IMG/VR virus record: IMGVR_UViG_3300028832_000122
Span: 1-64,000 of that record
DNA from: a virus
Taxonomy: Duplodnaviria > Caudoviricetes
Length of the DNA stretch: 64,000 nucleotides
Reading direction: 5' to 3' (one strand)
Shown: one piece after another, positions 31,566 to 47,938 of the stretch
Layout: each line of letters opens with the position of its first letter
Position numbering within the stretch: position 1 is the first letter of the stretch
Made by a program: the position numbers and the translations under genes
The notes under the pieces: generated by a model
Seen by the model: only the letters and a program-made list of their open reading frames with translations
Databases searched by the model: none
What the model was told of the DNA's origin: nothing

Positions 31566-31570
31566 TCACA

Positions 31571-31888
31571 TCACCCCAACATATTCATCAGCTTTTTCAG
31601 TTTCTCAAATACCGGCCAGTACGCAGACGCCTTCGCATCCTTCCACGCCGTGTACTCCTCGCTGAACTCCACCGCAGGCTCGCTCCCGTTCTCAGCCAGG
31701 AACGCATACAGACTGTCCTTCGATACAGTCAACTCCAGCGTGTCATACTCCTGGGCCAGCACGTACAGGATCTCACCGCCGTTATCAACCTCAGCTTCCG
31801 TTACAACCGCCCACGCACCAGGGCACGCCATGACTTCCTTCGCCTTCATTCCAATGATCTTCATTGCTTTCTCCTCCTTATTAATCAT
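31571..31888 (-). CDS. Hypothetical protein
   Basis: ORF with GGAG RBS downstream of recombinase-like gene. Confidence 0.55.
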   Translation of the reverse strand: MINKEEKAMKIIGMKAKEVMACPGAWAVVTEAEVDNGGEILYVLAQEYDTLELTVSKDSLYAFLAENGSEPAVEFSEEYTAWKDAKASAYWPVFEKLKKLMNMLG

Positions 31889-32594
31889 TCAGTATCGCTT
31901 CGTGCTTTCCCTGCACCCACTCATCAGTTCCTTTGATCCTGTAGTAGCCGTGGTAAAACCTCTCGTTGTTCCAGATCCCCTGCACGGTACCAATCGTGAA
32001 CAGTCCGCCCTTCCGGTTTCTGTATCCGTTTGCGTTCAGTTTCTCCATCGTCCCCATCATCGTCCGCCCTGCATGCTTCTCCTCCATAATGAACTTCACT
32101 ACAGGTACTTCAGATTCGTTCACTAAAAGCTGTCCGCCTGATACACGATAACCCATCGGCGCATTCCCACCAATGTACTCCCCGCGTATCTCCTTCCGCT
32201 TCCGACCGTCCGCATTCCTGATCCGCTCATGCTCCAGTTCCATCCTGCACAGCGTTTCGGAAAACCTCTCGAGTACGCTCCTGTACGCCATGTACCCCGC
32301 ATACTCCTTCCATTCCGCTACAATAAGCATGCTTCCGCGCATCTGAAGCCTGCACCTGTACGCATAAAACTCAAACACGTTCCCCGTTATGTCCAGGTTC
32401 GACGCAGCAACAACAGCATCAATCTTCCTGTGACCTTTCCAACTGCCGTAAACTACGTCGCCAAAGTCGCTTACCTCCTCTCCGACCCAGTCCACAACCT
32501 CATACCCTTCATTGTCACAGTATAACTGCACAGTACGCTTCTGCTCCGCTTCGCTTCCATCCCCGTACCGTATGTATCCTACCGCCTTCTTCAT
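31881..32594 (-). CDS. Serine-recombinase-fold protein with degenerate active site and recombinase (DNA-binding) domain
   Basis: MKKAVGYIR start and GGNAPMGYR...LNANGYRNRKGGLF...GKHEAI recombinase domain; YIRYG replaces YxRVS and no DRLSR motif. Confidence 0.78.
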   Translation of the reverse strand: MKKAVGYIRYGDGSEAEQKRTVQLYCDNEGYEVVDWVGEEVSDFGDVVYGSWKGHRKIDAVVAASNLDITGNVFEFYAYRCRLQMRGSMLIVAEWKEYAGYMAYRSVLERFSETLCRMELEHERIRNADGRKRKEIRGEYIGGNAPMGYRVSGGQLLVNESEVPVVKFIMEEKHAGRTMMGTMEKLNANGYRNRKGGLFTIGTVQGIWNNERFYHGYYRIKGTDEWVQGKHEAILND

Positions 32595-32626
32595 ACACTC
32601 ACCTCCTCCAGTTTCGCTGCGGTTCT

Positions 32627-32668
32627 GTTTACGCCTAATATTATACCACGTTTACGGCAACTTTGCAA
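32627..32668 (-). promoter_or_regulatory. SigA promoter for recombinase-like operon
   Basis: TTGCAA-17-TATAAT with TG extended -10, followed by ATTAGGCGTA. Confidence 0.75.
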
Positions 32669-32795
32669 AATATTTTATTTCAAGTCCTTTTTTATTTTCG
32701 GGGGATTTTCAGGACGTGAACAAGGTAGGCCTTTTTTATGCTGCGGATGCTGGGAGGGGTTACGGCTCTGCCGGAACACCTCAAAAAATCCCCAT

Positions 32796-32848
32796 GGGAT
32801 GCTGAAAAAATGTAGCATCCTGGCGGGATGCTGAAAAAAAGTAGCATC
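32796..32848. repeat. Two tandem palindromic sites GGATGCT-N10-AGCATC
   Basis: GGGATGCTGAAAAAATGTAGCATCC (32796-32820) and GGGATGCTGAAAAAAAGTAGCATC (32825-32848) between divergent promoters. Confidence 0.8.
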
Positions 32849-32910
32849 ATATCGATAAAAACAGAACAAAAAAGTCATGAAAAGCCCTGTAAACGCCTTG
32901 TTTCCTTTAG

Positions 32911-32943
32911 GTTTACGCCGTTTTGTGGTACAATATAGGCGTA
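32911..32943 (+). promoter_or_regulatory. Extended -10 promoter with TACGCC-N18-GGCGTA operator
   Basis: TGGTACAAT at 32926-32934 flanked by inverted half-sites. Confidence 0.6.
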
Positions 32944-33261
32944 GGGAATAACCGCTGAACAGACGACGCCACGGGGCGTCATGACGGAGCACGACGCAAG
33001 GCGGGTAGCACGTCGGAAAACAACCGCCCGTGATCATTGTCAAGTCAATAGAAACAATCCGCTTTACCTCACGGAAAACACGTCATGACTGAACAAGGCA
33101 AGACGGGCGACAACGTAGGCGAAAACGTCACGCAGAACAGGACGGGCGGAGGAAACGCAAAAAATCCTGTACACGTTGGGCAATGTTTGAGAATTGCGGA
33201 GCGTGTACGGGAATCAGCACGGCAGGCAAAAAACAATTATTGAAAGTGAGGAAGTAAAAAA

Positions 33262-33576
33262 ATGGAAAGCGTAACTATCAATATTCTGTCAAAGGAAGAA
33301 ATAAAAGCTTTGCGGAAATCCGATATCTCAATAACAAAAAACCTTGCGTCACATATGAATAAATGTAATCGGATTGCGTCGGCGTTAAATGCCGAAATGA
33401 AGGCGGTAAAAGACAATCTCAAAGAAAAGCACGGGGAAATTGACAACGCAATTGTCACGATTGAAAACCGCCCCGAACATTACTTTAGCAAAGAAGAATT
33501 TATCGCCGTATACGGTGAAGAAGAATATAACAGATTCTATCTATTACGGGATAAATTCTATGTGACGTTCCACTGA
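33262..33576 (+). CDS. Hypothetical protein flanked by ~25-bp inverted repeats
   Basis: GAAAGTGAGG RBS; flanks 33202-33227 and 33590-33613 are reverse complements with one indel. Confidence 0.7.
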   Translation: MESVTINILSKEEIKALRKSDISITKNLASHMNKCNRIASALNAEMKAVKDNLKEKHGEIDNAIVTIENRPEHYFSKEEFIAVYGEEEYNRFYLLRDKFYVTFH

Positions 33577-33652
33577 TAAAGCCCGCCCCGCCTGCCTGCT
33601 GATTCCCGTACACGATACGGAATAAAACAAATTGAAAGTGAGGAAAAAGGCA

Positions 33653-34441
33653 ATGGCAAAGCATGAAACACTGAAAGAAAGACGGACAAACCCGCTATAT
33701 ACAAACGGGTTTATATGGAGCGGAAACGGGAAATTGCTCGACTATGATTCCGACGACGGAGTAATACAATGGCGATATGCACAATTCAACGTACGGGCAA
33801 TTGAAGATTGCCCGTGCAGAACAGCGGGATGTACTGCCGTCTGTTATGCGACAAAAGGCAATCATGTTTTTCCTTCTGTAAAGGCAAGCCGTGAGAAGTC
33901 GTACAATGAAAGCAGGCGGGCAGATTTTTCCGACGCCGTCGTGTATACGATTCGCACGGAAAAACAGAGCGGACGCTATAAAGACAAAATAATGGGCGTA
34001 CGTATTCATGAATCGGGCGACTTTTATTCCGTGCAATATTTACGTAAATGGCTAACCGCATGGTATGAACTGAAAAACGATGAAGGTGTATGCTTTGTGT
34101 TTTATACAAAGTCTTTTCCGTTTTTCCTTATGCTTAACGACTTAGAGCGGGCAATGTTAAACGAGTTATTAGAATCGGGAAAAGTCGCTATGAATCTTTC
34201 AATAGACGACACAACAACGCCCGAACAATGGAAGGCATACGTCAAAATGCGGAAGGCATTCCCAAAGGCGAACACGTACGCCGTAACGGAACACACAAAA
34301 GAAGGCGACGACGTTTGTGATTGTGCGGATTGTGCACGTTGCGGGGCATGCAATAAAGCGACGGGAAAGCGGAAAGTCGTTGTCATCCATTCCGCTAGTA
34401 ATGCGGACATGGACGTATACAGAGCGAACGTGAACAAGTGA
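33653..34441 (+). CDS. GP88-like Cys-rich (radical-SAM-related) phage protein
   Basis: CPCRTAGCTAVCYA Cys cluster, RIHESGDFYS and FYTKS motifs. Confidence 0.65.
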   Translation: MAKHETLKERRTNPLYTNGFIWSGNGKLLDYDSDDGVIQWRYAQFNVRAIEDCPCRTAGCTAVCYATKGNHVFPSVKASREKSYNESRRADFSDAVVYTIRTEKQSGRYKDKIMGVRIHESGDFYSVQYLRKWLTAWYELKNDEGVCFVFYTKSFPFFLMLNDLERAMLNELLESGKVAMNLSIDDTTTPEQWKAYVKMRKAFPKANTYAVTEHTKEGDDVCDCADCARCGACNKATGKRKVVVIHSASNADMDVYRANVNK

Positions 34442-34501
34442 AACGTGAACAAGCGGGGCGGGAATTCCGCCCCGCTCGAATAATGAAATGGAGGAAAGAA
34501 A

Positions 34502-34805
34502 AATGGAACGTTACTACTTCAACAATGAAACCGACGAAATCGAAAGCCTCGACACAATCCGCTCAGACTACTATGACCTTTTCGGCGATGATTATGACTC
34601 ACTCGAGGATTATATCACCGCTTGTCAATGGTACAACAACGGAACACTGACGCCCGTTTCCGTACGGCTCGCACGGGTAAAGCGTGAACTCAACCGTAAG
34701 TTGATGCTCGCTCAGAAGTATGGCTATGACGAATATGCTGATGAACTCGCCGATCTGCTAGAGCAGATGGACGTGTTGAGTAAGTACAACAGGGAGCGGG
34801 AATAA
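34502..34805 (+). CDS. Acidic hypothetical protein
   Basis: GGAGG RBS; D/E-rich. Confidence 0.6.
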
Positions 34806-34909
34806 CCCGCTCCCGCCATGCATGACACCGACGACAGCGGGCGGGAATCCAGCTCGCCCGCTGAGGTCGATGCCATACGGCACGAAGAACAACAAGGAGG
34901 CATACACAC

Positions 34910-35152
34910 ATGGTATACGACTGCATCGCATCTTCCCGAAAAAAACCGAACACTATTGTCCTGTTCGGTATTGTCCGCCCCGTTTCCCCGTACAGTGAAA
35001 AGCGGGTCGGTTTCCTTGCGGAGGAGGGGCTTTCCCGCTACTGCTCCGCTCGTGACCAATACGGGAACATGTACGAACTGTACACCGACTATGATCCATG
35101 TCTGCGGGTATCGCACGCCGTCGCCCTGCTTGTCGAGGAGGTGACAGCATGA
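34910..35152 (+). CDS. Hypothetical protein
   Basis: GGAGG RBS upstream. Confidence 0.6.
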   Translation: MVYDCIASSRKKPNTIVLFGIVRPVSPYSEKRVGFLAEEGLSRYCSARDQYGNMYELYTDYDPCLRVSHAVALLVEEVTA

Positions 35153-35379
35153 CACGTTCCTATCCGTACCGCATCACGCTCCGCATGTATAGCGGACTGA
35201 CCGAACGCCACTACATCGAAGCGTCCAACTATCGGGACGCATTCGATAAAGCCCACCGCTTCGCCAACCCGATAGCCTATAGCGGGAAGTATCACGGACA
35301 CACCGACGGCGTGCAGTTTATCGACGTGGACAAACTGACCCGTTCCTACTGCAAAGAGCATGATATCAAACTTGAATAA
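35149..35379 (+). CDS. Hypothetical protein
   Basis: MTRSYPY start overlapping upstream stop, GGAGG RBS. Confidence 0.55.
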   Translation: MTRSYPYRITLRMYSGLTERHYIEASNYRDAFDKAHRFANPIAYSGKYHGHTDGVQFIDVDKLTRSYCKEHDIKLE

Positions 35380-35391
35380 GGAGGTTTATCC

Positions 35392-35595
35392 ATGAACGCC
35401 ACGATTAACGACCTCAATATCCATTCCCCGTACAGAGTGTACGACCTCGACACAGGGCACTACGTATTCTCATGGCTCGATACCAACGCATGGGGCGACA
35501 TCCCGCCCGATATCGCAACCCTGCCCGTCGTTGGACTCCGTGCCATGAATGGAGTCCTGTACATCGACACCCGCACGGGAAACCGTATCGACTGA
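35392..35595 (+). CDS. Hypothetical protein
   Basis: GGAGG RBS. Confidence 0.55.
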   Translation: MNATINDLNIHSPYRVYDLDTGHYVFSWLDTNAWGDIPPDIATLPVVGLRAMNGVLYIDTRTGNRID

Positions 35596-35652
35596 CCGCA
35601 CGGGGCGGGGATGCCCGCCAGGTCACCTCCGCCCCCACTCCCGTTTTCCTCG

Positions 35653-35690
35653 TTGACACTTACGCCATCATAGTGGTATAATTAGGCATA
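35653..35690 (+). promoter_or_regulatory. SigA promoter with TACGCC-N18-GGCATA operator
   Basis: TTGACA-18-TATAAT with extended -10. Confidence 0.8.
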
Positions 35691-35712
35691 AACTGAAAGA
35701 GGAGGAAACCCC

Positions 35713-36225
35713 ATGCAGAAGTACACATCATCCGCCACGAGCATCAACCGCTCGAAACTCCCCGCCGTATACGGCAGGGCGACCCTGTCCCGCACGACGC
35801 CGTTCGTCGTCGACTATGGCTGTGGGAAGTTCACCGACCACATCGACGAACACCTCCGCCGTCTGAGCAAAGTCCTCTACCCGTACGACCCGTACAATCA
35901 GCCCGACTACGTGAACCTCCACACGCTCGACTTCATTCGTTGGGCAATGGATAACCGCATCGAGGTCGACGTCGTCTGCTCGAACGTGCTGAACGTCATC
36001 GACTCCGACGGCGAGGTGTCCCGCATATGCCACGACCTCGAGCGGATTGCCACCACCACAGGCGGGACGGCATTCGTAACCGTCTACGAAGGCAACCGCT
36101 CGGGCGTCGGACGTCAGACGGGGCGTGACCAATATCAGCGGAACGCTACGCTCCGTGACTATCTCCGCTTCTTCCATAACGCCACTATCAAAAACGGAAT
36201 GATTATCATCAAAGGAGGAAACTGA
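35713..36225 (+). CDS. Class I SAM-dependent methyltransferase
   Basis: VVDYGCGK motif I; VVCSNVLNVID motif. Confidence 0.75.
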   Translation: MQKYTSSATSINRSKLPAVYGRATLSRTTPFVVDYGCGKFTDHIDEHLRRLSKVLYPYDPYNQPDYVNLHTLDFIRWAMDNRIEVDVVCSNVLNVIDSDGEVSRICHDLERIATTTGGTAFVTVYEGNRSGVGRQTGRDQYQRNATLRDYLRFFHNATIKNGMIIIKGGN

Positions 36226-36226
36226 T

Positions 36227-36577
36227 ATGAAAATCACCAACATCCATACCGACGACGGCTACACCTTCACGCTCACGCTCGAGGACGGGACAGAGGCGAC
36301 TCTGTCCCCCGCCTTGGCGGGATGCCTCAAAGAGCAGATGCTCAAGCGTGAACTCCGTGACGCCATCACGAACATCATCGATGAGGAAATCAGCTACGGC
36401 AACATCGACATGGACAAGCACGAGTATAGCCGTGATGACTTCGAGGAGGAAATCTACTGTGACCTCGAGGAGGAAATCGAATACGGCGACTACTCCGCCC
36501 TGTGCAACGACGGCGAATGGATTCGTGAGAAGATTACCGACACGGCAGACTTCTATGAACTCTGCCCCGACGAGTGA
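36227..36577 (+). CDS. Highly acidic small protein (DNA-mimic candidate)
   Basis: Very D/E-rich; similar C-terminal half to 37317..37649. Confidence 0.6.
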   Translation: MKITNIHTDDGYTFTLTLEDGTEATLSPALAGCLKEQMLKRELRDAITNIIDEEISYGNIDMDKHEYSRDDFEEEIYCDLEEEIEYGDYSALCNDGEWIREKITDTADFYELCPDE

Positions 36578-36590
36578 GAGGAGTGATATC

Positions 36591-37001
36591 ATGATTCCCG
36601 TTCTCTTCATTAACTGCCTGCGTGAGCAGTTCGTCGATTGGATTATCGGCGGGCTGAAACTGTATGAAACACGTACGAGGAACACGCTCAAGAAACTGCT
36701 CGAGTCGTATCTCGGGGAGCGGATACTGATAGCGGAAACAGGGCGGGGCGACCCGCTCGTCCGCTGCTCCGCCGTCATCGATGAAGTCATAGCCGTCTAT
36801 GACCAAGCCACATGGGAGGACTACCTCGGACAGACTTGGATTCCTGTTGACTCCAAGTATGATTGGAAACCTACGACTAAGGTCAAGTATCTGTATCATC
36901 TGACAGACGTCCACAAACTCGCTCGCCCGTTCCGCCTGCCGAAGTCGTGCCGGAGGCATGGGCGTGTGTGGGCTGAATATGAATGGGGGTGTGCATTATG
37001 A
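36591..37001 (+). CDS. ASCH/PUA-like domain protein
   Basis: FVDWIIGGLKLYETRT...GERILIAETG ASCH signature. Confidence 0.7.
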   Translation: MIPVLFINCLREQFVDWIIGGLKLYETRTRNTLKKLLESYLGERILIAETGRGDPLVRCSAVIDEVIAVYDQATWEDYLGQTWIPVDSKYDWKPTTKVKYLYHLTDVHKLARPFRLPKSCRRHGRVWAEYEWGCAL

Positions 37002-37255
37002 GTAAGAGCATCATCTCCCTGGCACGTGGCATCTCGACCCTTGGGATCGCTCGCCGTGAGCTGGACCGTGTGGAACGGCTCACGGGGGTACGCCCCGAGG
37101 ATTGGCTCATGGACGTGTACGACGAGGATATCGACGAGTTCTACACGGCCGACGGCTTCGATTGGGAAGCGTTCGAGATGCACATGGGATTCATCGCAGA
37201 TTCCTACATCGACTTTTTCGACGACCATCAGCGTGACCTCGTCATGGATTTATAG
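36998..37255 (+). CDS. Acidic hypothetical protein
   Basis: ATGA overlap with upstream gene; D/E-rich. Confidence 0.55.
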   Translation: MSKSIISLARGISTLGIARRELDRVERLTGVRPEDWLMDVYDEDIDEFYTADGFDWEAFEMHMGFIADSYIDFFDDHQRDLVMDL

Positions 37256-37257
37256 TC

Positions 37258-37295
37258 TTGCAAGTTACGTCATCATGTGATATAATATAGGCATA
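37258..37295 (+). promoter_or_regulatory. SigA promoter with TACGTC-N18-GGCATA operator
   Basis: TTGCAA-17-TATAAT with extended -10. Confidence 0.8.
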
Positions 37296-37316
37296 GATTG
37301 AAAGGAGGTATCCCGC

Positions 37317-37649
37317 ATGGATATCAAAGTTATCAGACGCACGCCCGACCTCATCGAAATCGAGTCAGCTACCCGCACGAACAACATCACAACCGACGAA
37401 CTGAATGCCCTGCTGAAGTTTAATCTGCACGAGCGACTCCGCTCGGAAGTGACCTACGTCGTCGACCACATGATTGAAGACGAGGACATCGACATGAATG
37501 ACTACCCGTATTCCTATGAGGAACTGATTGACGAAATCTACATAGACTTCGAGGACAAACTCGACGCCGACGAGATCCCGTTCCCCGCTGATGACGACGT
37601 ATACGACGCCGTCAGCGACCTCATCGACTTCTATGTACTGAATAAGTAA
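37317..37649 (+). CDS. Highly acidic small protein (DNA-mimic candidate)
   Basis: About 31 D/E versus about 9 K/R in 110 aa by manual count. Confidence 0.6.
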   Translation: MDIKVIRRTPDLIEIESATRTNNITTDELNALLKFNLHERLRSEVTYVVDHMIEDEDIDMNDYPYSYEELIDEIYIDFEDKLDADEIPFPADDDVYDAVSDLIDFYVLNK

Positions 37650-37662
37650 GGAGGAATCAGCA

Positions 37663-38208
37663 ATGGCTAAACTGACGAACGTATCCTGTGTGTACACGGG
37701 CGGTGGCATCTACGTCTACACCGCCCAATTCAATGACGAGGTTTGGCTCGGCACGGACTTCGACCTCGTCGGCAGTTACGACACCCCGTGGGAAACCATC
37801 ACCGACGAACTGAATTGTGATTACGATTCTCATTGGAAAGACCCGTCCGTTCCGTACCCTACATGGGGTGAGATCCTCGCCTCTGTCTACGAGAACTGCG
37901 ACTCCGCTACCTACTCTGACGTCGCACGTACCATGGAGTACTACGGGGATATGCTCGGAAAGCGTATCCTTGGCGACGACGAACCCGTCAGGCAGGCACG
38001 GGACGAGCATTCCGCCCGTTTGGAAATGCTCTGCGACATCATCGAGGTGTTCGAGGACTTCCTCGACGAGAAGGGTATCGTCATCCCGAACGACGAGAAG
38101 GATCAAGATCCCGACGCTTCCAATATTTACGGCACAGATTACGGCAACCTTGAGAGCAGACTCGAATCGCTGCTCATCAGCTTTGGACTCATGAAGGAGG
38201 AGAAATAA
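37663..38208 (+). CDS. Acidic hypothetical protein
   Basis: GGAGG RBS; YTGGGIY motif. Confidence 0.6.
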   Translation: MAKLTNVSCVYTGGGIYVYTAQFNDEVWLGTDFDLVGSYDTPWETITDELNCDYDSHWKDPSVPYPTWGEILASVYENCDSATYSDVARTMEYYGDMLGKRILGDDEPVRQARDEHSARLEMLCDIIEVFEDFLDEKGIVIPNDEKDQDPDASNIYGTDYGNLESRLESLLISFGLMKEEK

Positions 38209-38209
38209 C

Positions 38210-38500
38210 ATGGATAACATCAGAACCTACTCCGTCGGCAACGGAGAGATTACGCTCACGGCTCAGGACGCAGAGGAACTCCGCATTCTGCTTCAGTCAG
38301 ATTATATGGAGTATGTCATCAATGAACTGATTGATGCCTCGCCGAAAGCATACAAGTTCTATTCCGATAAGGCTCGTCGTGCTTTCGTAAACAACATGGT
38401 TCTTCGTCGCTCCGACATGCGGGACATCGAAGGATGCTTCGAGGAAATGCTCGAGGATTCAATGCTCGAGTACGCCGAGGATCTCGGCATAAGGGGGTGA
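38210..38500 (+). CDS. Hypothetical protein
   Basis: GGAGG RBS. Confidence 0.6.
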   Translation: MDNIRTYSVGNGEITLTAQDAEELRILLQSDYMEYVINELIDASPKAYKFYSDKARRAFVNNMVLRRSDMRDIEGCFEEMLEDSMLEYAEDLGIRG

Positions 38501-38505
38501 CGCAC

Positions 38506-39258
38506 ATGCTCCACTCCCTTCCACGTGCATACCGCACACCATCCGGTGCAGTATATACCCCGTTCCTCCGCCTTGCTGAACGTCCGCACCTGCTCATAGC
38601 GGGTGCGACGGGAAGCGGTAAGTCCGTCGCTCTGAATGGTATCATTCATTCCATGCTGATGACTCAATCCCCGTTCAAGTGTCAGTTTGTACTCATCGAC
38701 CCGAAGAAGGTGGAACTCGTGCAGTATGAATCGATCCCGCACACAGCCCGCTACGCTTCGGATCATCCCGAGATTGTCCGTGCCCTGCAATGGAGCGTGG
38801 AAGAAACTGACCGCAGATTTTCTGCCATGCAGATAGCAGGCGTCAAGGAGTACGACGGTCCGCATCTGTACGTCATCATCGACGAACTCGCCGACCTCAT
38901 GGTTTCCATTAAGAAGGAAACGCTCCCGCTCCTGCAACGCCTCGCACAGATTGGACGTGCTGCCCGTGTCCATGTCATCGCCTGCACGCAGAACGTCCTG
39001 GCGGTAACAATCCCGACCGTCCTCAAGTGCAATTTCTCGACCATCCTCGGCCTGCGTACATGCAACGCACAACAATCCCGCTTCCTCATCGCATCGACAG
39101 GATGCGAGATGCTCCCCGATCCGAAGCGTGATGGCAAAGGCTATGGCTTCATTCGGGACGGGGCCGACCTCGAAAAGCTTCTCATCTATAAGTACCCCGA
39201 CGACCAGGTCGACGCCGTCATCGACTGGTGGACATCCTCCTCCTGCATCGCATCATGA
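38506..39258 (+). CDS. Stand-alone FtsK/SpoIIIE-type ATPase domain
   Basis: PHLLIAGATGSGKS Walker A, LIDPKKVEL, IIDELADL Walker B, GRAARVHVIACTQ. Confidence 0.88.
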   Translation: MLHSLPRAYRTPSGAVYTPFLRLAERPHLLIAGATGSGKSVALNGIIHSMLMTQSPFKCQFVLIDPKKVELVQYESIPHTARYASDHPEIVRALQWSVEETDRRFSAMQIAGVKEYDGPHLYVIIDELADLMVSIKKETLPLLQRLAQIGRAARVHVIACTQNVLAVTIPTVLKCNFSTILGLRTCNAQQSRFLIASTGCEMLPDPKRDGKGYGFIRDGADLEKLLIYKYPDDQVDAVIDWWTSSSCIAS

Positions 39259-39271
39259 AAGGAGCACAGCA

Positions 39272-39580
39272 ATGAAGAAAGAACTGAGAGAATATGCCAG
39301 GAAGATCCTGGCAGACCATGGGTGCGATGAGTTTTCATACGGCACCACATCAGGCGAACAGATTATGAGCGATCTGAAGGAAGCATACCCGGACGGCATG
39401 GACCATCCGTACATCGACGTCCTCCGCGATGAGGAAGAAGAAGCATACGAAAACCTGCCGGAGTCTATCCAGGAGTCTGAGCGCGGTGAAACGATGACCG
39501 ACGCGATTGGCAACCTGGAGGATGCGATCTCTACACTGGAGGACGCTACCAGTTGCCTCAGTGACGCAAAGGGGGAATAA
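39272..39580 (+). CDS. Hypothetical protein, possibly a two-gene fusion
   Basis: GAAAGGAG RBS; C-terminal half RDEEEEAYENLPESIQESERGE is a distinct acidic helical module. Confidence 0.55.
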   Translation: MKKELREYARKILADHGCDEFSYGTTSGEQIMSDLKEAYPDGMDHPYIDVLRDEEEEAYENLPESIQESERGETMTDAIGNLEDAISTLEDATSCLSDAKGE

Positions 39581-39582
39581 CA

Positions 39583-39837
39583 ATGAGTCAGAACAAGCAT
39601 TACTTTATCAGACGCACATGCCTGCGGACCGGCCGCATTGACTACAAAAAGAACAAGTGTGTCGATGGGTGGGTTAACAAAAAGTCTATGTGCTGGCAGT
39701 TTTCTCTGACCGGCGCAACGGATCTCGTCAAAGAGTTTCAGCGCCACGCTGACAAAAACGGCAATTTTTATCAGTACTTCTACGACCTGGTTGAAGGTAC
39801 TCTTCCCTACTCCGGCCGCGATCCACACTGCGATTAA
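39583..39837 (+). CDS. Hypothetical protein
   Basis: ORF with RBS ending before a terminator. Confidence 0.55.
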   Translation: MSQNKHYFIRRTCLRTGRIDYKKNKCVDGWVNKKSMCWQFSLTGATDLVKEFQRHADKNGNFYQYFYDLVEGTLPYSGRDPHCD

Positions 39838-39856
39838 TCCTCTCTCTCTTTCTTGG

Positions 39857-39890
39857 CCGTCCGGATCCGTTCCGGGCGGTCTCTTTTTTA
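39857..39890 (+). terminator. Intrinsic terminator ending plus-strand block
   Basis: GCCGTCCGGA...TCCGGGCGGT stem followed by T-run. Confidence 0.65.
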
Positions 39891-39902
39891 TACCGTTCTT
39901 TA

Positions 39903-40036
39903 TGTCACAAACGAGCGTTTCTGACACGTTTTTGCAAGCTGTCCGTTCCGCTCATATCGCCCGGGTGTTTTCGTATCAATATCCGTATCAAAATCATGTT
40001 GTCTAATACGTCCGTTTGTGATATAATATAACTACA
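39903..40036 (+). promoter_or_regulatory. Putative res site (resolvase binding subsites) overlapping resolvase promoter
   Basis: Palindromes TGTCACAAACG-AG-CGTTTCTGACA (39903-39926) and TGTCTAATACG-TC-CGTTTGTGATA (40000-40023); CGTATCAA direct repeats between them; TATAAT at 40022. Confidence 0.7.
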
Positions 40037-40064
40037 GAATCATATGAAAGGTGGCAGATGCCAA

Positions 40065-40625
40065 GTGAAAATCGGATATGCTCGCGTGTCCACCCAGGAC
40101 CAGAATCTCGACCGTCAGCTGGATAACCTCCGCGCCGCTGGCTGCGAGAGAATCTTTAACGAGAAGATGACCGGAACGAAATCAGACCGGCCGGAGTTGA
40201 AGACGATGCTTCTCACTCTGCGGCCGGGAGACGTCCTGGTAATCGATTCGTTCTCGCGCCTCAGCAGATCCACCAAAGACCTGCTGGATCTCGTAGAGAA
40301 ACTGACAGCCATGGACGTCCATCTCGTCAGCCTGAAGGAAAACCTGGACACGACCACGGCGACCGGGAAACTGATGCTTACCATGTTGTCCGCGCTGTCT
40401 CAGTTCGAGCGGGATCTCATTGCCGAACGAACCATCGATGGACTGAAGGCCGCTCGTGCTCGTGGCCGGTGCGGAGGCCGGCCGGTGATCGGAACCGATA
40501 AGGACAGGAAGCAGGCGCTTGCGATGTATCGCTCAAACGCCATGACAAATCCGGAGATCGCCGAACGGTTTGGGATATCGTTGTCGACGCTGAACCGGTG
40601 GATCAGAAAGGAAAAGCAGGGGTGA
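40065..40625 (+). CDS. Small serine resolvase/invertase (Tn3 resolvase/Pin family) with C-terminal HTH
   Basis: IGYARVSTQDQNLDRQ (catalytic Ser intact), SFSRLSRS, ARARGRCGGRP, HTH. Confidence 0.95.
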   Translation: MKIGYARVSTQDQNLDRQLDNLRAAGCERIFNEKMTGTKSDRPELKTMLLTLRPGDVLVIDSFSRLSRSTKDLLDLVEKLTAMDVHLVSLKENLDTTTATGKLMLTMLSALSQFERDLIAERTIDGLKAARARGRCGGRPVIGTDKDRKQALAMYRSNAMTNPEIAERFGISLSTLNRWIRKEKQG

Positions 40626-40647
40626 TCGTTCCCCTGCTTTTTTTATT
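40613..40647 (+). terminator. Intrinsic terminator after resolvase
   Basis: AAGCAGGGG...CCCCTGCTT then TTTTT. Confidence 0.8.
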
Positions 40648-40722
40648 TCACCTTGGAGCAACCTGTCACGTCGTAAGACTATATATATATTATTTATCCG
40701 TAATAGTAGTAATATATATACG

Positions 40723-41289
40723 TCACTCGTCCTCGTCTGGTATCGCTTCGATCAGACGTTGACGTGCTGTGTCCGCATCCAGCCCCTGCATCGGGTTGTT
40801 CGGTGTCACGACAACGTCCGCTACGTCCTTGTACCCGTACCAGTTCTTTGCGAGGAAGATCGCCGTGGGCGGAGATATCTTTCCGTACGTCATGTAGTCC
40901 GTCCACATTTCCTCCATAAAATTGTATGCTTTTTTAATGATGTCGCTGTGCGTATCAGCCCGTGTTACTCCTCTTACCCATTCATTCAGCGTATCCCGGC
41001 TTATTCCCAGCCAATTGCACATCCCGATGATTTGCGGACGCCGGTCGTTATCTGAGCAGAACTTGAAGTACATACCTATCCGTTCCCGAACCTGTTCGGG
41101 GTCGGAGATATCGATAGGCGGAAGATCCCACGAAGCGAGTGCCCACCGGACGAACCGTGCGTTGTCACCAGGCTGAACGTTTCCACCGTCTTCCGACAGT
41201 TCCTTCATCCAATCAGAGCCGCGGTTACGTTTCTTTTTCACGACCTGTTCTATCTGTTCGGTTGAGATTATGTTATCTTTATCACTCAT
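40723..41289 (-). CDS. terS: Terminase small subunit (DNA-packaging gp3-like)
   Basis: GMCNWLGISRDTLNEW HTH, AIFLAKNWYGYKD motif. Confidence 0.78.
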   Translation of the reverse strand: MSDKDNIISTEQIEQVVKKKRNRGSDWMKELSEDGGNVQPGDNARFVRWALASWDLPPIDISDPEQVRERIGMYFKFCSDNDRRPQIIGMCNWLGISRDTLNEWVRGVTRADTHSDIIKKAYNFMEEMWTDYMTYGKISPPTAIFLAKNWYGYKDVADVVVTPNNPMQGLDADTARQRLIEAIPDEDE

Positions 41290-42727
41290 TGTTCTCGCCT
41301 CCATAAGCGTACTTAATGTCCTTCCAATCGAGATCCGCGTACTGTTTTACCTCGGGCCAGAAGTGGGGTTTTGATGTCGACACGAAGTGTTTAATGATCG
41401 GATTGGTGCACGGTTCGGACACGAACGAATCAGAGTAGCGTGACGGCAGACGGCGGATGCGCATATGGCAGAGGTAATTAAGCACGTCCTGCTCGAGGTG
41501 TTCGTAGTGTTTAGTGTTAATCTCGTCGATTACTTCCTTGTCTTTACCGTCCTCGGAGAATTTCTTGAGGTTCATGAGCATGACGCCTGCGTTGAAGTAC
41601 GGGCGGAGTGTGTGGTTGTGGTTGCGTACCTCTTCAACGGCAGCGAAGTAGCGGTGTGTGATATCCGTTGTCCACAGGTCGGATATATCATCGACGACGA
41701 CGGTATCAGGATCCAGCCACAGGACTTTCTCGACGTAGAGCGGGAGGATGCGAGTCAGACCTGCTCGAAGGGTTGTCATAGTACCGTACCATGCCATGAT
41801 ATTCGGGCCGTTTGCGGGGAAGATAGTCTGGTTTGTGACGTTAATGCATTCTATCACAGGCGGGAGCGGTCCGTACTTTGACGGGAGAGTGTCGCCGTCG
41901 ATGAGGAAGAAGACTTTGTCGATGTGCGTGTGATACAGCAGGGATTTTGCCGCGGACACCATCATATCGTAGACTCTGCGGTCGCCAGCGTACACGACGT
42001 AGCGTGGTTCGGGCGTGGTATGTGTGAGCCAGTACTGCACCTCACCCATATCAGACCAGTCATCGAGTCCTGCAAAGTGCTTAATGATGGTACGTTTCGG
42101 GTTGCCGGTGACATCAAACGTCTGCTTTGTGACATTGTAGTCAGGCGGAAGCGGGTCGAAACGGTTACCGCAGATTTTAACGAATGCGTCCTGCTCGGGG
42201 TAGGCGTGGTAGCGTGTGTTTACTTCTGCGATTATCTCTTCGTCCTTGCCGGATGAACGGAGTTTGTTAAGGTTCAGCATAGCCACGCCGAAGTTCGGGT
42301 ACGGAATCCCGCGAAGCTGTGAACCACGAGGCTCGACGACGGCTGCGAAGTATGCGTGTGAGAGATCCCACTCCCAAAGCGGGGATATGTCAGCGCACAC
42401 GATTGTGTCGACGTCGAGGATGACAGCCTTGTCCGCATCGGGGAAGATCTTTGTGAGCGCGGTCTTAAGGAGGATCATGTACGAGTACTTTGTGTTGTAG
42501 CACGGTCCGTCCTGGGGGAAGAGCGTCTGTCCTGTGACGTTGACGCATGTGACCTGTGGCGGGGTTTTAACGGGGAGTTTATCGTGCTCAATGAAGCAGT
42601 ACACGTGGACATCTGGAGTGTATGCAAGCAGGGAGTTGTATGCTGCCGGAAGCACGCCGTACAGGGTCTGAGTGCAGAAGTACGACACGATTTTCTCGCC
42701 TGGTTGCGTGTGGATTACGGGAATCAT
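41282..42727 (-). CDS. Tandem double glycosyltransferase family 8 protein
   Basis: Two copies of (K)xxxLDxDTxV...YFAAVxE...xNxGVxxxNL...EQDxxN...IxHF GT8 motif set. Confidence 0.9.
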   Translation of the reverse strand: MIPVIHTQPGEKIVSYFCTQTLYGVLPAAYNSLLAYTPDVHVYCFIEHDKLPVKTPPQVTCVNVTGQTLFPQDGPCYNTKYSYMILLKTALTKIFPDADKAVILDVDTIVCADISPLWEWDLSHAYFAAVVEPRGSQLRGIPYPNFGVAMLNLNKLRSSGKDEEIIAEVNTRYHAYPEQDAFVKICGNRFDPLPPDYNVTKQTFDVTGNPKRTIIKHFAGLDDWSDMGEVQYWLTHTTPEPRYVVYAGDRRVYDMMVSAAKSLLYHTHIDKVFFLIDGDTLPSKYGPLPPVIECINVTNQTIFPANGPNIMAWYGTMTTLRAGLTRILPLYVEKVLWLDPDTVVVDDISDLWTTDITHRYFAAVEEVRNHNHTLRPYFNAGVMLMNLKKFSEDGKDKEVIDEINTKHYEHLEQDVLNYLCHMRIRRLPSRYSDSFVSEPCTNPIIKHFVSTSKPHFWPEVKQYADLDWKDIKYAYGGENNE

Positions 42728-43695
42728 GTGTTCACCTCCTCTATCAGTTTACATATGCGTTCACAGGCATGTCCGTCGAGCGATGCATCGGCTACGGTAC
42801 GCAGGCAAGCCTTCTCTGTTTCAGTGAGGCCGTCGGCAGTGCGGAGCAGTGTGATGAGTTCTGCTTCCGTCCGTGCGTAGCGGGAAGAGTAGAACGCAGG
42901 GTACGGGAAGTACATACCGCGTGTCTGGAGGTAGCCTGGGTTCTTCTCGAACAGGACAACGGGCTTGCGGAGGATGTATGCATCGAACATCACGGAAGAG
43001 TAGTCGGTGATGACGACGTCTGCATCGTAGAGGTACGGGGCTGAAGGTTCGTCCCCGGGGACTGCGATGATGTGCCTGTACTGACTGTCGATAACTTTCC
43101 TCGACACGTACTGGTAGTACCACGGGTGCGGTTTGAACACGAACATCTCGTCGTCAGACAGGATACTGTCGATATAGTCAAGGTCGATGTATGGTAAAGG
43201 TGTTTCACCTTTGTCCCTGAACGTTGGCACATAGAGGTACGCACGCTTGCAGGAGAGAGGTGTGTGCCCGTCACCTTTATGTTTTCCGACGTACTGGTCA
43301 GTACGTGGCATTCCAAGCGGAAGGATCCTGTCATGTGGGACAAGCGTGCAACTCTCCCATATGCCGATTGTACCCGTTCCGGCTGACACGATGTAAGTTA
43401 TCCTGTCTGCTACGGACGGGTGGTAGTACGGCGTACCTGGCTGATCCATACCGCAACACTTGCTTCCGTGGATTCCGTGACCGATGACGATGCATTTGCC
43501 GGGAGTGTAAGCTGGAAAGTCATCTATCACCATCAGGTCATACCGTCCGGATGTTACCTGTTCGCGGTAGTCGTCGTCATAGGAATGAATCAGTTGCTTG
43601 TCACCGTCGTATGCTTCATAGATGGCACGCAGGTTTTCAGCACGCTCGATTGGACGGAAGCATGAGAACAGCACAGGCTTAGGCATCGTTGTCAT
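42724..43695 (-). CDS. CDP-glycerol/ribitol:poly(polyol-phosphate) phosphotransferase (TagF/TagB-like)
   Basis: HG...K..GMD, LPLGMPRTD, LYVPTFRD, KPHP, ADVVITDYSSVMFDAYILRKPVV motifs. Confidence 0.88.
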   Translation of the reverse strand: MTTMPKPVLFSCFRPIERAENLRAIYEAYDGDKQLIHSYDDDYREQVTSGRYDLMVIDDFPAYTPGKCIVIGHGIHGSKCCGMDQPGTPYYHPSVADRITYIVSAGTGTIGIWESCTLVPHDRILPLGMPRTDQYVGKHKGDGHTPLSCKRAYLYVPTFRDKGETPLPYIDLDYIDSILSDDEMFVFKPHPWYYQYVSRKVIDSQYRHIIAVPGDEPSAPYLYDADVVITDYSSVMFDAYILRKPVVLFEKNPGYLQTRGMYFPYPAFYSSRYARTEAELITLLRTADGLTETEKACLRTVADASLDGHACERICKLIEEVNT

Positions 43696-44032
43696 TCTCC
43701 TTCCGCTCGAGGAATCCGCACTCTTCCATCACGGTACGATTTGCACGGCGGATCACCATCCAAATGACCTTCGCAGGGATATTGTTCTTGAGGCTGTAGT
43801 CCTCGACGGCGTATTGGTCATCGCCCCAGCGTGTGGTGAAGTACATCTGCAGGATATCCTGATCAGACTTCACGAAGTCCTTGAGGTAGACATGATTGCA
43901 GATGGCATAGATACGTTGCTCGGGCAGTGTGAGTTTATCCCAATTGAATCCGTCACGCTGCATGGCGAAGTAAGTACGCCACATGTGGTTGGATACGCCT
44001 CTCCACCACTCAATGTTCTTCATCGGTATCAC
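43679..44032 (-). CDS. Hypothetical protein, possibly RinA/ArpU-like late regulator
   Basis: Size, position before late genes and C-terminal WMVIRRA...ECGF resemblance; weak. Confidence 0.35.
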   Translation of the reverse strand: MIPMKNIEWWRGVSNHMWRTYFAMQRDGFNWDKLTLPEQRIYAICNHVYLKDFVKSDQDILQMYFTTRWGDDQYAVEDYSLKNNIPAKVIWMVIRRANRTVMEECGFLERKENDNDA

Positions 44033-44169
44033 CTTCCTTCCCTTGTGCGTACTCCTCGAGCCTGTCCGCGGCTTCCGTGAGGAGTTTAAGCCTGTCCCGG
44101 GTAAGCATCCCGCCTGCTGACGCCATCAGACGCAGGCGTGAGATTATCTTATCCGTAGGCAGACGTGGT

Positions 44170-44826
44170 TTACTGTTCATTCGCATTCCCCCTTTGCCTG
44201 TATGCCAGGAAGTCTTTCTCCGTGTACACGTACGGCCCGATGTGACCGCATGACACACGGCTGTCACACCATATCGGATACCCGAGCTGGTTTACCCGAT
44301 GGCAGAAGGCAATGTCTTCCCCTGCCCACGGGAGCGGGCTGAATGCAGGTCCGCACTCATCCCACACCGCCTTCAGCAGTTTCACGGATGTAAGCACGAC
44401 GCCAAACCCGCAACCTTTTACCTTGAACAGCGTGTCCCTGGGGAAGTCATCGTAGTTGTGTATCTTCCCTATCTTTTTCCCGTTCTCATCAAGGTATGGT
44501 TCTTCGAGAACGTCATAGATTACAGGCGAGTACGGAGGCCGGCGCTTGAAGTACACACCTGTGACCATGTCTGCGTTAAGTTTGTCCATGTCTTCCATGA
44601 GCAGTTTCATGGTTGACTTCGTGAACATCATGTCCGAATCAAACCACATCACCCTGTCGTATCCCTGTGTGATAGCATTGATACTGATGAGATTCCGGCT
44701 GTCATACACGAGCGAGTTCGCCTGTTGGTTCACGAACACGTTATCACCCTTCTCAAGGTAGAGCAGGGACGTCTGAAACCCGACAGGCACGTCATCCATG
44801 CATGGGATTGCAATCATTGTCTTCAT
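44170..44826 (-). CDS. GT-A fold glycosyltransferase, paralog of 24791..25438
   Basis: MIAIP...YDSRNLI...VMWFDSD (DxD)...GCGFGVVL...GEDIAFC...CGHI. Confidence 0.82.
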   Translation of the reverse strand: MKTMIAIPCMDDVPVGFQTSLLYLEKGDNVFVNQQANSLVYDSRNLISINAITQGYDRVMWFDSDMMFTKSTMKLLMEDMDKLNADMVTGVYFKRRPPYSPVIYDVLEEPYLDENGKKIGKIHNYDDFPRDTLFKVKGCGFGVVLTSVKLLKAVWDECGPAFSPLPWAGEDIAFCHRVNQLGYPIWCDSRVSCGHIGPYVYTEKDFLAYRQRGNANEQ

Positions 44827-44850
44827 GATTTCTGTCCTTTCTGCGTGTTT

Positions 44851-45150
44851 TGTTACGGTGTCGCACGTTTTGTTACGGTGTCACTTTGAAATCCGTAACA
44901 AGCAAGAGCGTTGATTTATAAGGCTTACAGGATTTTTGTTACGGATGTTACGGATGTTACGGTGTGAAAATACCTATTACGCGCGCGAGCACGCGTGCCT
45001 TGAATTCGGATTTCACAAAATATACGTCCAATATATAGGGTGTATGTCCGAAAAATCCGTAACATCCGTAACAAGGTACCTCAACTCCTTATGTTTCAAG
45101 GCTTCCGCTTGTTACGAACCACCGTAACAAGCCACTAACATCCGTAACAA
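44851..45150. repeat. Iteron array (TGTTACGG/CCGTAACA), probable replication origin
   Basis: About 10 copies in both orientations in a non-coding region downstream of the DUF927 gene. Confidence 0.8.
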
Positions 45151-45162
45151 GGTCAGGGAAGG

Positions 45163-45555
45163 TCAGTCTGATAATTTATAATCGAACCATCCGCTGATGA
45201 TGTTCTGCGGGTAGAAGATAATTTCGTATTTGTATTTGCTGACTTCTTTTGTTTCGATCTGCTCGACGATATACGTCGTGTCCTGCGAGAGGTGGGCATA
45301 GTTCAGAACGTATTCGCCAGGGGCCTTTTCAATGGTGATATTCAGGTCGCCGTCCTTGTCCACGTCAATGGACAGCAGGCCGGTAATCTGCATCATAGCC
45401 TTGTCCGTACGCGTGTTCATGACGGTTATCCTTCTGCGAACGTTGAACTCTTCCGCCTCACGCTTGAGGTTGTACGTGACCTTATCCGACTGCGAGCAGG
45501 CGGACATCACAAACAGGAATGCAATCAGAATTGCGAAGACCAAAGAACGTTTCAT
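45163..45555 (-). CDS. Phage lipoprotein
   Basis: Signal peptide with lipobox MSAC; FNVRRRITVMNTRTD motif. Confidence 0.75.
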   Translation of the reverse strand: MKRSLVFAILIAFLFVMSACSQSDKVTYNLKREAEEFNVRRRITVMNTRTDKAMMQITGLLSIDVDKDGDLNITIEKAPGEYVLNYAHLSQDTTYIVEQIETKEVSKYKYEIIFYPQNIISGWFDYKLSD

Positions 45556-46045: not shown

Positions 46046-47938
46046 TCAGAACGGCATGTCGGGATCGTCCACTGCCACATAATCCTGATACGCCTGCTGT
46101 TCTGTCTTCTCTTCCTCCGTTGGCAGTTTGATTACAACGTGCGGGATCTGCTTTTTGTTCACCCAAACGGGCCATGTCGGGCGGTTGTTCTTATTACCCT
46201 GCCCATAGTACTGGCACTTCAGCAGGTTCTTCCGACGTGCCCAGTCCAGAAACGCACTCGGTGAGAAGCCTTTGTTCTTCACGATGTCATCGAACACGGT
46301 CTTGTTAATGAACACGTACCCGTCCTCGTACTTGCCCCACAGTTCACCGATACTGTTATCCTCTGAATCAAAACGGCGCGGGTTTGCTGCGCAGAATCCT
46401 ATCAGCCACTGATAGCACCGCAGGTTCACGTCTGTTTCAGACCGGCTGACGAGGTAGCCTTTGATCTCGTCAACGGTAAGGGCGTGCTTGTCCTTGAAGA
46501 TGGCTTTGGTTGCGAGTGCGTCGGCTGCAAGGAGGATGGACGCTGACAGCACCTGCTTGTCCTGCACATCCTCCTGCATAAGTTCCGTATAGAACTTCTT
46601 TTGCAGGGCCTTCAGTGCGTCTATTACGCCGTCCTTGCGGATCATCTGTATGAATTTCGGACCTGCAAATCCATAGTGTTCCTTGAGCGTATTTGCGGTC
46701 ATACGTGCATCCTTGAAAAGCGGTACGCCGCCGAAGTTAACCTCGACAATACGAGCCACTGCACCACCGCCGGAGTTACCCTGGGTGATAGGCATCTCGC
46801 CTGTGGTAATGATGCATGATGACCATCGTTTCTGTGCCTGCAGTCCGCCTTCCTTTGCACCGCGTCCCTTGCTGACCCCTTCGCACAACATGTAGATAAT
46901 GTCGTCAAAGGTTTTTCTGTCAGAAATGACCTGCAACTCATCAAACAAGATAGGTAAATTGCAGCAGAACGATGCGTATAACTCCTGGGATACCTTTGTC
47001 CCGGAGAATGTCTTAACGTACCGGCCAACGTCCGGATTCCCCCAAACGGAAGCGGCCAACATCAGACCGACGGTCTTGCCACATCCGGTCTCGCCCCAGA
47101 AGTGTACAAAGAAAGGCAAGCCACCCAGGATTTGGACAAGCGGGGCCGCAAAAGACGAAGCCAGTGCAATCCGCGCCGGGATAGATTCTGCCTTGCGTAC
47201 TTCCTTTGCGAGATTCAGCCATGTTTCCTCATCCCCCGTTGGTTTAAACTCTGTGTACATCTTAAGGAACTCTACACTGTCCCCGTCATAGGAAACGTCG
47301 TTCACGTACGGCATGAACTGTCCGTCCTGCAACCATCCCATGTGCGATACGGAATTCTGCCTCGGCAGTGCGTCATAGTTCAGTGACTCAAGCACTCCCA
47401 TGTACTTAACGACTTCCTTTGCGTTCTCAGAATTGACAGCGACGCCCTGCTTTGACAGGCCGATTATCTTCTGAGCGGAAGCGAGCATCTCCCTGGACAC
47501 GGTAAGGGATTTCCATGGATCCCTTCCACGGCAGTAGGCAATCTCCAGCTTTTCCTCGAAGGTTTCGATATTGGTTACACGCTTCACAGGCATCAGTGGA
47601 TGTGATATAACCTCAACGTCCGCACCCATCTCATTTGTGCGGTGAACACCGAACTCGTCTGCAAAGTAGATCCCGCACTCAAGCTGCGTAGGCTGCTTCG
47701 GGAACATGGTCTGATTGCTTCCGAGGATGGTTGCCTTCGGGGACTTTGACTCAACGTATGCGTTCCATGTCTTCATGAAACCCGTGAACTTCAGGTCTTT
47801 GGCGACGGTTTGCATCTTGTTCAGCAGTTGCTGGAGCAGGAACTTGTTGTCTTTCTGCTCATACAACCATGCATACGGACGTTCTGTCAGGAAGTCATCA
47901 TACGTCCAGTTCGGGATCAACTGTGTTGCTTCTGACAA
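46046..47938 (-). CDS. DUF927-domain replicative helicase/primase partner
   Basis: WLQDGQFMPY, FFVHFWGETGCGKT Walker A, ILFDELQ Walker B, GEMPIT...GGAVARIVE. Confidence 0.82.
   Translation of the reverse strand: MSEATQLIPNWTYDDFLTERPYAWLYEQKDNKFLLQQLLNKMQTVAKDLKFTGFMKTWNAYVESKSPKATILGSNQTMFPKQPTQLECGIYFADEFGVHRTNEMGADVEVISHPLMPVKRVTNIETFEEKLEIAYCRGRDPWKSLTVSREMLASAQKIIGLSKQGVAVNSENAKEVVKYMGVLESLNYDALPRQNSVSHMGWLQDGQFMPYVNDVSYDGDSVEFLKMYTEFKPTGDEETWLNLAKEVRKAESIPARIALASSFAAPLVQILGGLPFFVHFWGETGCGKTVGLMLAASVWGNPDVGRYVKTFSGTKVSQELYASFCCNLPILFDELQVISDRKTFDDIIYMLCEGVSKGRGAKEGGLQAQKRWSSCIITTGEMPITQGNSGGGAVARIVEVNFGGVPLFKDARMTANTLKEHYGFAGPKFIQMIRKDGVIDALKALQKKFYTELMQEDVQDKQVLSASILLAADALATKAIFKDKHALTVDEIKGYLVSRSETDVNLRCYQWLIGFCAANPRRFDSEDNSIGELWGKYEDGYVFINKTVFDDIVKNKGFSPSAFLDWARRKNLLKCQYYGQGNKNNRPTWPVWVNKKQIPHVVIKLPTEEEKTEQQAYQDYVAVDDPDMPF

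Follow-up and report, generated by a model that had tools for sequence, protein, structure and literature searches.

The window analysed here comprises the first 64 kb of an 81,576-nt IMG/VR record (IMGVR_UViG_3300028832_000122) that CheckV rates as complete. On its minus strand, directly ahead of the small terminase subunit gene terS, lies a cassette encoding a glycosyltransferase (GT) of the GT-A type, a TagF-like cytidine diphosphate (CDP)-alcohol phosphotransferase and a tandem double GT8 enzyme. The head module holds a second GT-A gene beside the gene of a predicted decoration protein that ends in a short threonine-containing repeat, referred to below as the tag. These genes are considered as a candidate pathway for glycosylation of the phage's own particle, and all comparisons are of sequence and predicted structure and concern uncultured phages.

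The minus-strand order reads primase-helicase, a VG64/RDF-like gene, a 336-nt spacer, GT-A, a small open reading frame (ORF), a 114-residue ORF, the TagF-like gene, the double GT8 gene and terS (Table 1). The three enzyme genes are intact ORFs. Consecutive genes of the unit abut or overlap, by 4 nt between the TagF-like and GT8 genes and by 23 nt between the GT8 gene and terS, and the two small conserved ORFs between GT-A and the TagF-like gene each overlap their neighbours. The coupled TagF-GT8-terS unit proposed in the sequence-only reading is confirmed. The sole terminator-like site on the minus strand lies directly 3' of terS, and no promoter-like site belonging to the cassette itself was found.

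The TagF-like protein matches PF04464 with 124.2 bits (cut-off 22.1; E 7.7e-36), and its best solved relatives are TarL (8va1) and TagF (3l7i). Residues H73, H190, R160 and D231-Y232-S233 are invariant among 22 homologues, with the histidines and the (I/V)TDYSS nucleotide-binding motif aligning with the corresponding motifs of TarL and TagF. None of the equivalog cut-offs is reached, the scores being 48.5 bits for TarF (cut-off 550), 41.3 for TarL (1000) and 30.2 for TarB (500). The GT8 protein matches PF01501 in two stretches (132 bits, E 3.1e-38) and is best described as an internal duplication, its halves being 40% identical to each other (E 5e-46); both halves retain the DxD, NxGV, EQD and KHF motifs and align with LgtC and GlyE. 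The GT-A of the cassette remains below the Pfam cut-offs (19 bits against 21.7, GT2-type models) and matches PHROG glycosyltransferase families. Its model displays a GT-A fold with a predicted local distance difference test (pLDDT) score of 92 and gives at least 500 Foldseek matches to GT-A enzymes, headed by A197 of Sulfolobus turreted icosahedral virus (STIV) and followed by collagen and mucin-type protein glycosyltransferases. D63, D65, E170-D171 and H195 are invariant among its 35 homologues. The families named in the sequence-only reading are thus confirmed for all three genes by Pfam, PHROG or structural model, and the catalytic residues, the loss of which it had considered, are kept. 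No transmembrane-like segment was detected in any of the enzymes and no transporter gene lies within the cassette. Judged on these features, the enzymes look active and cytoplasmic.

The two small ORFs differ in their distribution. The 56-residue ORF, which starts from the ATG at 44180, has counterparts of 61-69% identity at the same position in three relatives (L002, G006 and G011). The 114-residue ORF is conserved in all pre-terS loci and has a 30%-identical relative upstream of terS in G010, a complete untagged genome that reads primase, 114-residue-ORF-like gene, terS. Since G010 carries no glycosyltransferase between primase and terS, the 114-residue ORF is a core phage gene rather than a glycosylation gene, with the glycosylation genes apparently inserted on both sides of it. 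Its Atlas look-alikes, found through language-model features and taken as a lead only, are phage sigma-70-like and ArpU clusters, and it is possibly an ArpU/sigma-like late activator.

The head module displays the order terL, portal, Mu F-like protein, scaffold-like protein, 115-residue protein, 215-residue GT-A and gpE-type capsid protein. The head GT-A is 27% identical to the GT-A of the cassette. The 115-residue protein, encoded just upstream of the capsid gene, has no match in Pfam or in a PDB sequence-profile search and was identified by fold search only. Its model (pLDDT 88) recovers phage 21 SHP, lambda gpD and the decoration proteins of recent capsid reconstructions, with Foldseek probabilities of 0.99-1.00 and template modelling (TM) scores of 0.46-0.60 against 1td3, 1td0, 1c5e, 8xqb and other decoration chains; its modelled fold thus marks it as a head decoration protein. 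The sequence closes with the six residues GATGAT, the only C-terminal repeat of this type in the genome. A 214-residue ORF at 26714-27358, considered as a third GT-A, proved to be the Mu F-like head protein.

Tags and enzymes among related and unrelated phages

In a set of 80 related viral loci, collected by a search anchored on the capsid protein, the slot between the decoration and capsid genes occurs in four states: empty, GT-A alone, TagF-like gene plus GT-A, or GT8 plus GT-A. In the alignment, the decoration proteins of 19 of 19 non-redundant loci with a head GT-A carry 2 to 7 triplets as a (G-A/E-T)n tail at the C-terminus. None of the 41 loci without a head GT-A has such a tail, and there the protein ends in NIGVN plus one residue. 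Some pairs of loci, such as L015 and L017, are near-identical apart from the tail and the GT gene. On the capsid tree, tail and GT change seven times, always jointly, with agreement in each of six independent pairs (sign test, p 0.03). The same holds for whole records, where members of the GT-A family are found in 6 of 6 records with a tagged and 0 of 14 with an untagged decoration protein. The number of triplets tracks the presence of a TagF-like gene in the head slot and fails to do so for pre-terS TagF, and was not used.

The pre-terS cassette follows the tag in a similar manner. The full order from primase through GT-A, small ORF, 114-residue ORF, TagF and double GT8 to terS is found in seven loci, the window included, and three more fragments hold its downstream part, from TagF to terS. 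Where a TagF-bearing cassette and the head region are both visible, tag and head GT-A are present in five of five phages, and a TagF-bearing pre-terS cassette was never seen in an untagged phage. The placement of TagF is complementary: it lies before terS in the window and in G025, whereas the complete genome G011 has it in the head slot, adjoining the head GT-A, and reads GT-A, GT2 and double GT8 in the pre-terS region. The complete TagF-bearing genomes examined hold exactly one TagF-like copy each, at one of these two sites. This complementarity is the main reason for regarding the two loci as parts of one pathway. In the TagF tree the pre-terS and head-slot genes form separate sister clades, and repeated hopping of TagF between the two sites was rejected because the tree requires one change only.

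A profile search with the TagF-like clade extends the picture to 61 viral loci. In about 35 of them only a few bases separate TagF from a GT-A gene, and a GT8 gene is added to the group in at least 15. Phage GT, terS or capsid genes flank TagF in all 61, and no wall teichoic acid locus is among them. GT8-TagF fusion proteins occur (L107, 537 residues; P0112, 540 residues). L105 (phrog_10 capsid), L134 (protease-capsid fusion) and L107 (phrog_422 capsid) have the TagF/GT-A pair immediately behind the capsid gene, and in phages of these types the capsid protein and a protein encoded several kb away both end in (GAT)3-10. The distant tailed proteins include major tail proteins of four PHROG families. 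Tails of the (GAT)n type number 21 in 232 kb of GT-bearing loci against 1 in 723 kb of GT-less loci. Because the tagged proteins of these unrelated phages lie several kb away, adjacency is ruled out as the explanation of the association, and the tag appears to act as a portable acceptor, carried by those surface proteins of which the particle has most.

Other tails accompany the same enzymes. Loci L127, L121, L123 and L132 carry the TagF/GT-A/GT8 module together with differing C-terminal tails on capsid-sized and tail-sized proteins, which are either poly-Thr and close with TTTTTTTA or ATTTTA, or Ser-rich and close with SASSSGVAGA. Their sequences suggest one enzyme set with several tag dialects.

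The TagF-like clade appears to be virus-specific by its distribution in the databases searched. Metagenomes contain at least 641 matching proteins at E below 1e-10, mostly of 311-333 residues and including one GT8-TagF fusion, and the best match in 185,579 prokaryote species, one genome each, consists of ordinary cellular enzymes of about 31% identity. Such a clade would be unexpected for a lysogenic-conversion gene of integrated prophages. A search with the cassette DNA against 50,697 phage records gave no match, and protein searches of cultured phages gave no convincing homologue of the TagF-like or double GT8 protein. In the phage collection, the closest GT-A (38.5% identity) is encoded within the structural module of L228 (BK063679.1, 7381-7980). 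L228 is a 34 kb virus from goat faeces with a predicted Methanobacteriales host, and no GxT tails were seen in it.

A TagD-type cytidylyltransferase was not found: PF01467 and PF12804 are absent from the record of the window, and PF01467 is absent from 30 TagF-bearing records. The CDP-alcohol would therefore have to come from the host, so that a widespread metabolite, for instance CDP-glycerol or CDP-ribitol, is the likely donor.

Features and surroundings of the cassette

Table 1. Positions of the pathway candidates and neighbouring features in the window
Feature	Position	Strand	Remarks
Primase-helicase	46046-47938	-	
VG64/RDF-like gene	45163-45555	-	
GT-A	44170-44826	-	218 residues, soluble; first gene of the pre-terS unit; PHROG GT families, GT-A model
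Small conserved ORF	44010-44180	-	56 residues from ATG at 44180
114-residue core phage gene	43679-44023	-	Candidate ArpU/sigma-like late activator
TagF-like CDP-alcohol phosphotransferase	42724-43695	-	323 residues; PF04464
Tandem double GT8	41282-42727	-	481 residues; PF01501, two stretches
terS, small terminase subunit (gp3-like)	40723-41304	-	Last gene of the unit; PF16677, phrog_606
Terminator-like hairpin	40612-40641	-	11-pair stem, then T-rich tail
terL	29281-30975		
Decoration protein (gpD/SHP-like), predicted	25453-25800	-	115 residues; phrog_909, Foldseek; GATGAT end 25456-25473
Head-module GT-A paralogue	24791-25438	-	215 residues
Major capsid protein, lambda gpE type	23679-24749	-	PF03864, 1.3e-41
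GT2 glycosyltransferase, tail end	6353-7330	-	PF00535, 1.2e-12; pathway membership uncertain

The portal and primase-helicase are closest to those of Clostridium, Anaerostipes, Roseburia and Ruminococcus phages and of uncultured faecal phages. On this similarity, the host is probably a Clostridia-type Gram-positive anaerobe and not an actinobacterium, to which the Pfam name of a neighbouring gene, 'Mycobacterium phage VG64', could falsely point.

The GT2 gene lies at the distal end of the tail module, directly downstream of a gene for a 784-residue BspA-type leucine-rich repeat protein (7349-9703), and is followed by the genes of two proteins without a family match (4949-6343 and 4089-4931). 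Homologues of 25-30% identity occur inside the pre-terS cassette of L002 and G011, the sole link of the GT2 enzyme to the pathway, and its membership is uncertain on such distant similarity. The two further glycosyltransferases that the sequence-only reading had placed alongside the cassette thus both exist; the head enzyme belongs with the system, while the GT2 enzyme is tied to it only by these distant homologues in two relatives.

The genes terS and terL are parted by a 9.7 kb block on the opposite strand, an arrangement kept in relatives. The block (31000-40700) encodes an invertase (40044-40625), an FtsK/SpoIIIE-like ATPase (38434-39258) and a GP88-like gene (33632-34441), and holds four copies of a 41-nt repeat with an extended -10 box (at 32914, 35661, 37266 and 40007). 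Seven relatives and G011 likewise have an FtsK-like gene after terS, in the same opposite orientation, so that the block is no recent insertion. At its left edge (31571-33043), serine-recombinase-like frames are divided among three minus-strand ORFs, with a Recombinase domain at 31881-32594.

The spacer upstream of GT-A (44827-45162) contains ten copies of the heptamer CCGTAAC on both strands, out of twenty in the 81.6 kb record. Relatives carry their own distinct 7-mer in 6-13 copies at the same site, after a DUF927 primase-helicase with a Cch helix-turn-helix domain. The spacer looks like a replication origin with iterons, the specificity of which may co-evolve with the helicase. This reading took the place of a late promoter or pac site because, in every relative, a 7-mer peculiar to that relative occupies this position next to the primase-helicase.

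A candidate glycosylation pathway and its alternatives

Taken together, the genes probably constitute a pathway by which the phage, late in infection and within the cytoplasm of its host, glycosylates its own particle. The head GT-A, as the putative initiating protein O-glycosyltransferase, would place a first sugar on the threonines of the decoration protein tag, which, if arranged as in lambda gpD, would face away from the capsid. The pre-terS enzymes would then build on this sugar: the second GT-A may add another sugar, the TagF-like enzyme may use a CDP-alcohol made by the host to attach a phospho-alcohol (most likely glycerol- or ribitol-phosphate), and alpha-linked hexoses may come from the two GT8 domains. 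We infer what the acceptor and the donors are, in which order and at what time the enzymes act, and that a glycan exists at all. The preference of the sequence-only reading for virion decoration over lysogenic conversion gains support from the co-variation of tag and GT-A (its proposed co-occurrence survey having given the 19 of 19 against 0 of 41 loci described above), from the (GAT)n tails of unrelated phages and from the placement of TagF. That reading had also described the genes as a late operon. The unit does include terS, with which it would be co-transcribed, yet it ends after terS, 9.7 kb from terL, and its late timing is deduced from that co-transcription.

The same reading had proposed that a teichoic-acid-like polymer is built, which is not supported as stated. 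A single phospho-alcohol cap, as in the CD0244 reaction described below, would fit equally well by analogy. In the polymer version, the TagF-like enzyme polymerises glycerol- or ribitol-phosphate on the tag sugar, giving a capsid with protein-anchored teichoic-acid-like chains that bear GT8-added alpha-hexoses. We consider this version unlikely; if true, the virus would wear a coat of the polymer type found in the wall of its host.

Several points weigh against a virion glycosylation pathway. It is proposed from the genes of phages that are all uncultured, and its late timing is deduced from co-transcription with terS. Only 15-50 nt separate the tag from the head GT gene and both could be inherited as one block, so that linkage alone could explain part of the co-variation within the lineage; it would leave unexplained the tagged tail proteins of other lineages, which sit several kb away. 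In the window the tag is short, at two triplets, and neither the capsid protein nor the major tail protein bears one. A GxT tail is lacking from the fetched stretch of roughly half of the TagF-anchored loci, although many of these loci are fragmentary and lack head genes, and some bear other Thr/Ser-rich tails. The pre-terS and head-slot TagF clades could have diverged in function. Lastly, the ranking of protein glycosyltransferases among the Foldseek matches is weak evidence because GT-A folds all resemble one another.

The most serious alternative is that the cassette remodels a wall glycopolymer of the host, wall teichoic acid or a secondary polymer, and thereby excludes other phages or prevents progeny from sticking to debris. 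It deserves this place because enzymes of the TagF family normally act on wall polymers, usually on teichoic acid precursors at the inner membrane face, where no flippase is needed. In staphylococci, prophage-encoded teichoic acid glycosyltransferases (TarP) remodel the wall polymer in this way. The closest named families here are likewise TarF, TarL and TarB, reliance on host CDP-alcohol pools implies a host that makes such polymers, and the cassette sits at a module boundary, a frequent insertion site of accessory genes. Remodelling of the wall is nevertheless unlikely: the cassette overlaps terS and has no promoter-like site of its own, many phages have the same enzymes inserted between decoration and capsid gene or immediately behind the latter, and the co-variation with a virion protein tail is perfect. 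In addition, the TagF clade is absent above about 31% identity from the 185,579 species genomes.

Another arrangement would restrict virion glycosylation to the head GT-A and the tag, leaving the pre-terS unit as a separate system with another target, such as a tail or receptor-binding protein or a soluble product. The complete genome G006 speaks for such independence, as it carries the tag, the head GT and a cassette with GT-A and a single GT8 and has TagF nowhere, so that the head GT/tag pair works without TagF; the pre-terS TagF genes also form their own clade, and the tag of the window counts only two triplets. Against it stand the complementary placement of TagF, with one copy per genome at either site, the lack of any TagF-bearing cassette in an untagged phage, and the position of TagF directly beside GT-A in about 35 loci. 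Two separate systems are hence judged unlikely. Glycosylation or phospho-alkylation of the phage DNA as a protection from restriction, which the sequence-only reading had listed, recalls that some phages glycosylate their DNA and that the genes adjoin the packaging gene terS. It is made highly improbable by the lack of a thymidylate-synthase-like hydroxymethylase in the 81.6 kb record and by the association of the enzymes with Thr-rich-tailed capsid and tail proteins and not with replication genes, and we know of no DNA modification of the TagF type. Virion glycosylation thus remains the reading that we prefer.

Should the proposed pathway be real, self-coating would be widespread among phages, a tag together with a GT would provide a simple sequence rule for predicting modified virion proteins, and phospho-alcohol chemistry would join the viral protein glycans. 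The compact tag-enzyme pair could also serve glyco-engineering of phage capsids. Such coats would be relevant to the behaviour of phages in mucus, in the rumen and toward wall-binding proteins of the host.

Comparison with known systems

To our knowledge, glycosylation of phage particles has been proven experimentally only in a few mycobacteriophages, and we know of no TagF-like phosphotransferase described in that process. Glycosylation of mycobacteriophage virions alters their recognition by antibodies. PMC12363180, citing Freeman et al. 2023 (Cell Host Microbe), describes phages Che8, Corndog and Myrna, in which the phages' own GTs modify capsid and tail tube proteins. The proposed pathway resembles these systems in that phage GTs lie in the late or structural region and that the tagged proteins of the surveyed relatives are capsid and major tail proteins. 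It differs in its probable Clostridia-type Firmicutes hosts, in the gpD-like carrier of the window and in the defined (G-x-T)n tag. The enzymes are not homologous, as a tblastn search of the GT-A, TagF-like and GT8 proteins against 50,697 phage records returned no mycobacteriophage. In the literature searched, no report was found of TagF-type enzymes or Gly-x-Thr tags in phage virion glycosylation.

A chemical parallel is the type A glycan of Clostridioides difficile flagellin, where CD0240 adds N-acetylglucosamine (GlcNAc), the TagF-like CD0244 is required for the phospho-alcohol on GlcNAc, and the cytidylyltransferase CD0242 makes the system's own donor (PMC10714395). In FgtA of Pseudomonas aeruginosa both activities are fused (PMC10714395). 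In the flagellin system a soluble GT attaches a sugar to Ser/Thr of the protein and a TagF-like enzyme adds to it a phospho-alcohol taken from a CDP donor, and the phage enzymes would act likewise; GT-TagF fusions are found on both sides. In contrast, the phage and 30 relatives lack a cytidylyltransferase, the proposed substrate is a virion protein and the GT families are different.

A counterpart of the tag is found in BclA3 of C. difficile, in which the GT-A enzyme SgtA O-GlcNAcylates threonines of GPT repeats (PMC7157674). There, the GT-A gene lies beside the gene of its substrate and the modified threonines belong to Gly-x-Thr triplets, as is proposed here for the phage. BclA3 displays long collagen-like GPT regions on the spore surface, whereas the phage tags are 2-10 GAT or GET triplets at the extreme C-terminus of virion proteins.

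The TagF-like protein shares its Pfam family, catalytic histidine and nucleotide-binding motif with the wall teichoic acid enzymes TagF, TarF, TarL and TarB (3l7i, 8va1), from which it differs by its length of 323 residues, without the long N-terminal region of TagF, by its location outside a tag/tar locus and by its viral-only clade. The closest structural match of the phage GT-A, STIV A197 (2c0n; TM 0.63-0.70), is similarly a small viral GT-A, and the capsid protein of STIV is glycosylated. A197, however, comes from a virus of archaea, shares 20% identity with the phage enzyme and is without a proven substrate.

Thus, in abundant gut or rumen phages of Gram-positive anaerobes, an unrelated set of enzymes appears to do the same job as the mycobacteriophage enzymes, accompanied by a readable, portable acceptor tag and a virus-specific enzyme of the teichoic acid type. 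The window itself contributes a decoration protein as putative carrier, a proposed two-locus pathway with TagF at either site and a tandem double GT8.

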